Origin: Candidatus Hodarchaeota archaeon
GTDB taxonomy: Archaea > Asgardarchaeota > Heimdallarchaeia > Hodarchaeales > Hodarchaeaceae
Assembly: GCA_016840035.1 (NCBI GenBank)
Contig: JAEOTC010000086.1
Location: 83,175 to 147,174 of the forward strand
Reading direction: 5' to 3'
DNA: 64,000 bases
In this document: one piece after another, positions 47,965 through 50,351 of the stretch
Numbering within the stretch: position 1 is the stretch's first letter
Layout of the letters: each line of letters begins with the position of its first letter
The notes under the pieces: generated by a model
Seen by the model: only the letters and a program-made list of their open reading frames with translations
Told to the model about the DNA's origin: nothing
Database searches by the model: none
Translations under genes and position numbers: made by a program

Positions 47965-48147
47965 TTAAGGTCCAGAAAATCCACAATTAGGACAAATATA
48001 TCTGTTTCCAAGTTTTCGACATCGCTCACATCGGATGATCGGGATCATTCCGCATGATGGACATGGAAAACGAGCCGTTCCATGTTCACTTGGCATAACT
48101 GCAACTTGACAAGGATTACAACGTTGCATTTTTATGTTTTCACTCAT
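47965..48147 (-). CDS. Zn-ribbon protein (DUF1610/HVO_2753-like)
   Basis: CNPC..FPCPSCG..RCERCR..YICPNCGFSGP; start reassigned to ATG 48147. Confidence 0.9.
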   Translation of the reverse strand: MSENIKMQRCNPCQVAVMPSEHGTARFPCPSCGMIPIIRCERCRKLGNRYICPNCGFSGP

Positions 48148-48509
48148 TCCAGTAACCTCTTTGCCTATTTGCCTCGGATAAGAATGCGATAATAAAAGCT
48201 TCTCTTGAGTTTTGAAGACTATTCGCAAGTGAAGGGATTTATTGCTTGAGTTTCGGAGTATTTCACCATTCTTTCCATTTAGTTGCATATTGCCTCTATA
48301 TACAAAGAAAGTTTGCCTCAATTCGTTTTTATTACTCGAATCGAGTATTTTTAGGATAAAATACTTTCCCACTAAGATATTAGTAACCTTGGAGACAGGG
48401 AAAAAGAACTTCTTATTACGTAAGATAATGATTTCAATTGGTTAACTTCCAAGAAAATTTTAGGTTTTAATAAATCAATCGATAATTTACTTGATGACTC
48501 AAATAGAAG

Positions 48510-48938
48510 GTGAAATTCTTGGCTACTTTTGAAAACATGACATTAGGCGATAATAATGGATATAATTCAATGGAACAGGTTCAAAAAATTATTGATGGTC
48601 TTGGAACGGTAAAAGGCGTAAAAAAAGTTCTACTAGTAACTGAGGAAGGTTTTCCTATAATATCTGCTAGAACCTTACCTATGTCAGACGAGGTGGAGAC
48701 TGTTGTATCAGCAATGGTAGCAGGTATTGTGAGTACATTTTCAAGTGCATGTATTCAGCTAAATTTGGGAGATCAAGTGGATTTCATTCACGTTCAAACA
48801 CCTATAGGATTAGGAATTATATCAAAGGTACAAAGTACAATTCTTGTATTAATAACCGATTCTAATGTAAAATTAGGTTTGATGCACTATTTAGTTACAT
48901 CCACCAAGATGAAACTTCTTAAAACAAGGGAATTTTGA
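48510..48938 (+). CDS. Roadblock/LC7 domain protein
   Basis: GVKKVLLVTEEGFPI..VSAMVA..VKLGLM motif. Confidence 0.9.
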   Translation: MKFLATFENMTLGDNNGYNSMEQVQKIIDGLGTVKGVKKVLLVTEEGFPIISARTLPMSDEVETVVSAMVAGIVSTFSSACIQLNLGDQVDFIHVQTPIGLGIISKVQSTILVLITDSNVKLGLMHYLVTSTKMKLLKTREF

Positions 48939-49060
48939 TCCAATTATTGAAGAAATTAATTAAATAGGAATCAAAGTTCGATAAAAACTTTATTTCTCTA
49001 AAGTCAAGCTTTTATTAACCCCGAATTCTAGAGACTCCTCATGACATTTTTATTCTCAAA

Positions 49061-49552
49061 ATGATGAGAATTGTCATGATAGGTGAATTTATAGTGACTT
49101 TGAATGAATCCCAGTTACAACTTTTTCCTGTTCCTTGTACATCAGGAATGGAACCGAACTGTATACTTGATCCTGATCACCCGTGTTGTGAGAACATAAA
49201 ACGCGAAACTATTGAGTTTAAAAATGGATTACTTGTGAAACAGGGAAATTCTGCAATTGTCTCTCTAAAATTATCTTTTAATGATCCTGTGGAAGAATTC
49301 ATATTTGACCGTATTCGGAATGATTTGTGGAGAAATCCTGGTAGTCATGTGAAAGTCATTAGAGCTCCAGAAGAAGGATTTCAGATTTCATTCTTCCTTA
49401 CGACCGAGATGGTGAAAACTCAGAATCAAAGGGAGAATCTGATTTCTTATTGGGAAGACTTTGCAATTAACATTCGCCAGGTCTTAACTGATGGTAAAAT
49501 GGCAGTCAACAAGTTTGTAAGAAGTAGAACGACAAGACTAAGACTGGATTGA
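49061..49552 (+). CDS. ARP2/3 complex subunit 4 (ARPC4/p20)-like protein
   Basis: NSAIVS..DPVEEF..RAPEEGFQISFFLT..KMAVN aligns by eye with ARPC4 NSVRVS..DEIEKI..RKPVEGYDISFLIT..KLSVN. Confidence 0.8.
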   Translation: MMRIVMIGEFIVTLNESQLQLFPVPCTSGMEPNCILDPDHPCCENIKRETIEFKNGLLVKQGNSAIVSLKLSFNDPVEEFIFDRIRNDLWRNPGSHVKVIRAPEEGFQISFFLTTEMVKTQNQRENLISYWEDFAINIRQVLTDGKMAVNKFVRSRTTRLRLD

Positions 49553-49637: not shown

Positions 49638-50111
49638 TTATACAGCAATATCATATCCTGCACTATATATGGGATCCTGAGCTTCTCCATCAACTGAATA
49701 CTCGACTTTGATACGTACTTCATCATAAGCTCCAGGAGCAAAGGTGAAGACCATATCAATCTTGGATTGACTGGTTGCTATATTGAATGGAAAATTCGTT
49801 GAAGTATTATCATCATTAGTGAAAACAGCCCATGCACCAGATCCAGTTCTTCCTTCTAGAGTAACATTAGTTACTGCGACTGTGTCTGCGAGTTCATTGG
49901 TTAATGTAAACGTCAATTTGTCATTAAAACCATCAGTATCGATGTCTGAGAGGGTGGTTTTCCCGAATTTTAATTCTCCAGATGATTGGATCATCGGTAA
50001 CACAACTACAAACAATACAGCACCTGCAGCAACTGCGAGTCCAATTAGCAAAATAGCTGCTAATATTGGGCTTACAGCTCTTCTTCGTCTATATATTTTT
50101 ACTAAATTCAT
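49638..50111 (-). CDS. Archaeal type IV pilin-like protein
   Basis: Class III signal RRRRA/VSPILAAILLIGLAVAAG; start reassigned to ATG 50111. Confidence 0.88.
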   Translation of the reverse strand: MNLVKIYRRRRAVSPILAAILLIGLAVAAGAVLFVVVLPMIQSSGELKFGKTTLSDIDTDGFNDKLTFTLTNELADTVAVTNVTLEGRTGSGAWAVFTNDDNTSTNFPFNIATSQSKIDMVFTFAPGAYDEVRIKVEYSVDGEAQDPIYSAGYDIAV

Positions 50112-50351
50112 TTTACTTAATTCTCCGTGAAATATGTTCAATTTCTTTCCGTATGAGCGGAATTAGCAATATTGGTATATATTGGATATTATTTAAGCAT
50201 TTCATTTCATATGCTCAGAGCTTAATAAGCAGAGTTGAATAAAATATCCGAGAGTCTAGAAAACGATTCTAGGAAAGATGAGTGCGGAATATTGATTCGG
50301 ATAACTTATTATCATACTCATCCTAAAATGGACAAAAGGTGCATTTCAAGA

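Follow-up and report, generated by a model that had tools for sequence, protein, structure and literature searches.

Branched actin driven by the Arp2/3 complex underlies phagocytosis and crawling, and the origin of this machinery is central to eukaryogenesis. Asgard genomes hold only one of the seven Arp2/3 subunits, and its function is unreported. This distant homologue of ARP2/3 subunit 4 was described from Heimdallarchaeota/Hodarchaeales and listed among the eukaryotic signature proteins (PMC7444086, PMC7522288, PMC12077186), and ARPC4 also figures among the catalogue-matched clusters of bioRxiv 10.64898/2026.10.28.762692; in all four sources, the function of the Asgard homologue is treated as unknown. 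In the literature searched, no study was found on the function, structure or metal binding of an Asgard ARPC4 homologue, nor any description of the four-Cys segment, oligomeric state, fusions or gene context of the family. On the eukaryotic side, isolated ARPC2/ARPC4 binds F-actin at micromolar affinity and accounts for 60% of the mother-filament interface, the C-terminal helices of the two subunits packing antiparallel and burying ~2,300 Å2 (PMC9894260). As for the archaeal hosts, actin is reported from every Asgard phylum (PMC7444086), and a strain of the Hodarchaeales has been brought into culture (PMC13716822).

The locus considered here lies in a window of 64,000 nucleotides, i.e. the whole stretch of DNA analysed, from a Candidatus Hodarchaeota archaeon (assembly GCA_016840035.1, contig JAEOTC010000086.1, positions 83,175 to 147,174), with a G+C content of ~36% and encoded proteins whose nearest relatives carry the labels Hodarchaeales or Heimdallarchaeota. 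It comprises an ARPC4-like gene downstream of a Roadblock/LC7-domain gene, and is best explained overall, with a probability that we put at roughly 0.55, by a four-cysteine, self-pairing member of the Asgard ARPC4-like family to which Roadblock is an independent neighbour. The features of the locus in window coordinates are as follows, residue numbers referring to the 152-aa protein:

48510..48938, + strand: Roadblock/LC7-domain gene, 142 aa as called with an approximate start, matching PF03259.
48939..49093, + strand: intergenic spacer of ~155 nt with T-rich stretches, two TATA-like boxes and the Shine-Dalgarno (SD) site GGTGA.
49010-49019: TATA-like A/T box, TTTTATTAAC, read from the sequence.
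49047-49054: TATA-like A/T box, TTTTTATT, read from the sequence.
49094..49552, + strand: ARPC4-like coding sequence, 152 aa from GTG 49094, based on the SD site, homologue lengths and PF05856.
49136..49189, + strand: cysteine cluster C15-x7-C23-x7-C31-C32 plus H29, a probable metal-binding knuckle.
49247..49528, + strand: core ARPC4-homologous region, with the NSxxxS strand, the PEEG(F/Y)xISFF strand and the start of the C-terminal helix.
49421..49540, + strand: long C-terminal helix, residues 110-149, forming the predicted two-fold interface with helix 65-80.

The window's protein is a member of the catalogued Asgard 'ARP2/3 complex subunit 4' eukaryotic signature protein family, and profile matches together with the predicted structure make a solid case for its homology with the p20/ARPC4 subunit of the eukaryotic Arp2/3 complex. 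In the open reading frame as called (49061-49552, + strand, 163 aa from ATG 49061, in the same orientation as the Roadblock ORF), ARPC4 (PF05856) was matched at 34.3 bits for a cut-off of 22.2 (E 2e-8), positions 68-160 of the 167-position profile covering residues 63-156 in the 163-aa numbering; the original prediction that the C-terminal two-thirds align with ARPC4 thus holds, the above-cut-off match spanning the C-terminal ~60%. The genome-level search with PF05856 returned a single copy in the organism's own genome (33.4 bits, above cut-off), and phmmer aligned the protein to residues 63-158 of 1k8k_F. When a 33-sequence family profile was compared with the PDB, ARPC4 chains were retrieved at E 4e-12, with profile positions 43-148 on chain residues 56-163, and ARPC2 marginally at E 0.12. 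Besides, a profile restricted to Hodarchaeales and run against 1.8 billion cluster representatives matched 27 of them, mostly of ~150 aa and of the same architecture, two of the 27 being eukaryotic ARPC4 fragments (E 1e-4 and 7e-4).

The AlphaFold2 model of the protein (pLDDT 91.9, pTM 0.83) is predicted to comprise, in this order, three strands, one helix, two further strands and a C-terminal helix of 40 residues, so that the ARPC4 fold, i.e. a globular alpha/beta domain with a long helix at its C-terminal end, is present in the predicted structure. Foldseek placed ARPC4 chains alone at the top (E 6e-7, TM 0.70), ARPC2 second and type III secretion chaperones third, and VIA-align superposed 148 of the 152 residues of the model on residues 11-167 of 1tyq_F (Z 15.4, rmsd 2.6 Å), compared with Z 8-10 for the C-terminal domain of ARPC2 and Z of at most 5.6 for the chaperones; the comparison of folds proposed at the outset therefore came out in favour of ARPC4, as far as a model can tell. 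Regarding the N-terminus, said beforehand to be replaced by a Cys-rich segment, the statement stands for the sequence and falls for the fold: the eukaryote-type N-terminal segment (first ~55 residues) is absent at the sequence level, profile matches starting at residue ~43-63, but the model puts the four-Cys N-terminus where residues 11-55 of ARPC4 lie. Profiles and model together show the Asgard protein to be single-domain and ARPC4-like over essentially its whole length.

The true start of the gene is probably GTG 49094, giving 152 aa, rather than ATG 49061, because relatives are mostly 152-153 aa long and a conserved SD site lies 7 nt upstream. Among 68 close homologues, lengths were mostly 152-153 aa and the N-terminus read M-(T/P)-L-x-E-S. 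In the window, GGTGA (49082-49086) stands 7 nt ahead of GTG 49094 and, across 17 loci compared, GGTGA or GGATGA was found 7-8 nt 5' of the start codon in nearly all; the seeming conservation of an upstream 'IGEF' motif is this SD site read as protein. At the same 17 loci, a TATA-like box precedes the ARPC4-like gene by 40-85 nt. From its sequence we infer that the spacer holds a promoter belonging to the ARPC4-like gene; a scan for bacterial-type promoters and terminators gave counts not above those in shuffled sequences and, since the models were bacterial, is uninformative for an archaeon.

The cysteine pattern C-x7-C-x7-CC was found at 49136-49189 exactly as claimed; in the 163-aa numbering, it reads C26-x7-C34-x7-C42-C43. 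At least four cysteines occur in the N-terminal segment of 122 of 124 distinct family members, for which the wider consensus is C-x7-9-(F/Y)PC-x2-C-x2-5-C. The window's variant, C-x7/8-C-x7-CC, is shared by 64 of the 124, most others having C-x7-9-C-x2-C-x2-5-C. In the subgroup of the window, the third cysteine is replaced by Asp, with an extra cysteine directly before the fourth and a His two residues ahead; such a loss accompanied by an adjacent Cys/His gain is what one would expect were the number of ligands to stay constant. Four conserved Cys/His ligands thus lie within one short segment, as is required of a Cys4 structural metal site, and the segment was modelled at pLDDT 81-93 without regular secondary structure. 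The four conserved cysteines probably bind a metal, most likely Zn, because they are the most conserved positions of the protein: C15, C23 and C32 are the three columns of lowest entropy in the 33-sequence family alignment. The host being an anaerobe, an Fe-S cluster could instead of Zn occupy the C-x8-C-x2-C-x2-C motif.

Predictions with two copies of the chain indicate that the ARPC4-like protein probably pairs with itself, as had been proposed. Using the family alignment, the two-copy prediction reached an ipSAE of 0.61 (0.59-0.63 in three runs), against 0.02 for the best of three controls, the runs having at least 91% of contacts in common and a partner pLDDT of at least 87; in the calibration, 20 of 30 solved same-chain pairs attained this mark, as did 1 of 23 solved single chains. 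The interface involves residues 66-86 and 115-152, and the symmetric contacts 137:137, 138:138, 133:141 and 130:145 imply, in the model, antiparallel C-terminal helices related by two-fold symmetry. As the long helix 110-149 has its counterpart in the C-terminal helix 128-165 of ARPC4, the predicted geometry resembles the ARPC2/ARPC4 core and would be the homomeric counterpart of that pseudo-symmetric pair. The ARPC2/ARPC4 heterodimer having been solved many times, this favourable score may reflect the memory the model has of it, that is likeness rather than binding. Positions on the interface helices were more hydrophobic (0.54 vs 0.27, Mann-Whitney p 0.02, family-wide) and not significantly more conserved across the family (p 0.15); neither conservation nor hydrophobicity was retained as support for the dimer since they cannot tell an interface from core packing. 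On balance, we regard as fairly probable a metal-stabilised (Zn likeliest) symmetric homodimer, held by helix 65-86 and the antiparallel C-terminal helices and equivalent to the ARPC2/ARPC4 core.

The second gene of the locus encodes a protein matching Robl_LC7 (PF03259) at 32.2 bits for a cut-off of 23 (E 9e-8), residues 25-115 covering profile positions 3-90/91, with a weak hit to the MglB-like NCBIfam model (17 bits for a cut-off of 200). The original prediction envisaged a possible link between the ARPC4-like protein and Roadblock/small-GTPase signalling; the two proteins would then form a functional module, being co-expressed, interacting and coupling this signalling to the cytoskeleton. 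Both families are eukaryotic-signature scaffolds, and the two genes are adjacent on the same strand in 19 of the 21 genomes of the window's genus-level clade, Roadblock orthologues at the equivalent position exhibiting 57-96% identity. The whole 10-kb neighbourhood is collinear in this clade, though (22 GTDB loci and 21 genomes), with the order CDC48(-), aEF-1beta(-), Zn-finger(-), Robl(+), ARPC4-like(+), pilin-like(-), HTH membrane protein(+) and surface protein(+), so that the pair is conserved no better than its other neighbours. A synteny limited to one collinear clade was accordingly rejected as functional evidence.

Several genes of this block deserve a comment of their own. The HVO_2753-type zinc-finger ORF (window 47965-48372, - strand) is probably over-long as called at 135 aa, its Pfam domain occupying residues 85-131 and its relatives aligning to the last ~65-99 residues only. 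On the other side, the product of 49638-50141 (- strand) is an archaeal type IV pilin/archaellin-like protein with a TIGR02537 N-terminal domain and a weak UpsA-like match; its gene converges on the 3' end of the ARPC4-like gene, a position kept in the clade. In two genomes, CDC48 is matched by two separate blocks with the same orientation and a distance of ~1.5 kb between them (L014:822-4526 and L016:674-4378), which suggests an intein or another insertion in CDC48.

Past the genus-level clade, adjacency was lost at any depth at which synteny was compared. No Roadblock gene stands beside the ARPC4-like gene in representatives of 14 other Asgard families (f2-f6, f9, f13, f14, f24-27, f32, f33) or in five metagenomic relatives, the neighbours elsewhere including carbamoyl-phosphate synthase, NADH dehydrogenase subunits, RNA cyclase, Lon, pyruvate:ferredoxin oxidoreductase and radical SAM proteins. 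No close orthologue of the window's Roadblock protein was found at E<=1e-5 in four of the five other ARPC4-like-bearing genomes searched (families f2, f4 and f6), the sole match, a weak one in f14, being 20 kb away from the ARPC4-like gene. IS605/TnpB elements are even tolerated between the two genes in two Hodarchaeales genomes, with a gap of ~1.8 kb in the first (L003), the ORFs directly upstream of the ARPC4-like gene being:

L003:4823-5884: IS605/TnpB-type ORF.
L013:357-1958: IS605/TnpB-type ORF.
Domains of these ORFs: OrfB_IS605, Cas12f1-like TNB domain.

In f4, a sister family, the ARPC4-like gene is directly preceded on the same strand by a conserved ORF of ~150 aa belonging to no Pfam family, for which the idea of a divergent Roadblock was rejected (no Pfam match, Robl HMM at ~0 bits, hhalign probability of 0.1%) and which is possibly a lineage-specific partner:

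L067:4473-4910: conserved ~150-aa ORF.
L068:5519-5965: conserved ~150-aa ORF.
L069:5538-5993: conserved ~150-aa ORF.
L085:4324-4815: conserved ~150-aa ORF.

An MglB-type Roadblock GAP module would have an adjacent or cognate small Ras-like/MglA GTPase, whereas the flanking genes of the window's Roadblock include no GTPase gene, its neighbours being those for the Zn-finger protein, aEF-1beta, CDC48 and the ARPC4-like protein, although a GTPase may be encoded elsewhere. Together with the ~155-nt spacer and its own SD and TATA-like boxes, the lack of a neighbouring GTPase gene makes a Roadblock/ARPC4-like module quite improbable, and the proposed signalling link received no support: judging from the sequences compared, the Roadblock gene most likely forms a transcription unit of its own and is a clade-only neighbour, not an obligate partner.

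The family itself is distributed more widely than the 'few Asgard lineages' from which it was said to be known, and yet it is patchy. Of 400 Asgard genomes searched with its profile, 95 carry a single copy, representing 17 of the 33 families sampled, with 20 of 21 genomes in the window's clade and near universality in several other families; in the largest Asgard family sampled, none of 135 genomes matched, and several other families were also without a match. Since the family is missing in many lineages, though all Asgard phyla are reported with actin (PMC7444086), Asgard actin does not generally require the ARPC4-like protein. In small-genome Asgard lineages, the ARPC4-like domain is fused behind an ATC_hydrolase-like (PF14196) domain, one such fusion (P0081) having in addition a Cys/His-rich tail at its end, and in other lineages it bears C-terminal extensions of 200-280 aa without family match. 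The fused or extended forms are:

P0081: fused or extended ARPC4-like form.
L081:4515-5645: fused or extended ARPC4-like form.
L080:4770-5993: fused or extended ARPC4-like form.
P0085: fused or extended ARPC4-like form.
P0091: fused or extended ARPC4-like form.
L073:4407-5525: fused or extended ARPC4-like form.
L074:4944-6062: fused or extended ARPC4-like form.

In line with the stand-alone character originally attributed to the protein, the organism's own 87%-complete genome gave no match at E<=1 to ARPC2, ARPC3 or ARPC5 (PF04045, PF04062, PF04699), absence calls that are weak for PF04045 and PF04699, which found no match in any control genome either. One actin-family gene, at G000:C289:26249-27355, was found in the same genome, with no Arp2 or Arp3 detected. 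From these searches, the ARPC4-like protein appears to stand alone, outside any seven-subunit Arp2/3-type complex, and is described here as a family member instead of an Arp2/3-type subunit because no other subunit of the complex was detected.

These observations bear on a further explanation, namely an adaptor or chaperone-like dimer that has nothing to do with actin and would use its secretion-chaperone-like alpha/beta fold to hold another client, its Cys cluster being a redox or Fe-S sensor, in which case the actin-branching function of ARPC4 would have arisen only in stem eukaryotes. The patchy phyletic spread in the face of ubiquitous reports of actin speaks for it, as does the lack of cytoskeletal gene context: an actin gene was found near the ARPC4-like gene in none of the 85 loci examined, and the neighbourhoods of distant members are made of unrelated housekeeping genes, giving no contextual support for a cytoskeletal role. 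The fusions to an ATC_hydrolase-like domain and the long C-terminal extensions are not obviously cytoskeletal either, and the nearest folds after ARPC4/ARPC2 are those of type III secretion chaperones, which are homodimers binding extended peptides. The latter (InvB, Spa15, SycH) exhibit a similar alpha/beta arrangement at the level of the fold only (Z 4-5.6, weak next to the Z of 15.4 obtained with ARPC4), provide no sequence signal and have neither the long C-terminal helix nor the Cys cluster. Moreover, the Asgard protein keeps the NSxxVS, PxEGYxISF and helix K-x3-N motifs, arguing for more than a bare fold, and the eukaryotic ARPC2/ARPC4 pair binds F-actin unaided (PMC9894260). As a joint reading, the actin-unrelated adaptor with a late origin of branching is regarded as less likely than not, yet it is the main rival explanation.

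Coming back to the self-pairing ARPC4-like protein, a working scheme may be proposed by analogy with the eukaryotic pair. The four cysteines would hold a structural metal in the N-terminal segment, two chains would join along helix 65-86 and along their antiparallel C-terminal helices, and the resulting dimer would dock on the side of the lokiactin filament as a small scaffold or cross-linker, in the manner of isolated ARPC2/ARPC4. This side-on docking of the dimer to the only lokiactin-type filament of the organism is a tentative proposal, which we hold with clearly less confidence than the dimer itself. It is doubtful, and put forward as a speculation, that a metal-stabilised homodimer on lokiactin filaments is the surviving form of the ancestor that was duplicated into ARPC2 and ARPC4; if true, the filament-docking core of the Arp2/3 complex would be older than eukaryotes and older than Arp2/Arp3. 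What is new here is a structural model, that is a 152-aa, four-Cys and self-pairing version of the ARPC2/ARPC4 core as predicted, along with a negative result on the Roadblock link, a lead now removed as this neighbour is adjacent only locally.

Compared with eukaryotic ARPC4 (p20-Arc, PF05856; chain F of bovine 1K8K/1TYQ and of S. pombe 3DWL/6W17), the Asgard protein has in common the alpha/beta domain with its long C-terminal helix and the motifs NSxxVS, PxEG(Y/F)xISF and helix K-x3-N, at an identity of 16-20% only. The two differ in their N-terminus, the ~35 N-terminal residues of the Asgard protein forming a four-Cys segment that the aligned eukaryotic ARPC4 sequences lack, and in their partner, self-pairing being predicted for the former while eukaryotic ARPC4 pairs with ARPC2; the pairing helices in the Asgard model are nonetheless those that eukaryotic ARPC4 uses with ARPC2. 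As for ARPC2 (p34-Arc, PF04045), it is made of two tandem domains where the Asgard protein has one, and its C-terminal domain (chain residues ~118-294) comprises a homologous globular domain and an antiparallel C-terminal helix, so that ARPC2 would most naturally qualify as the second descendant of an ancestral homodimer.
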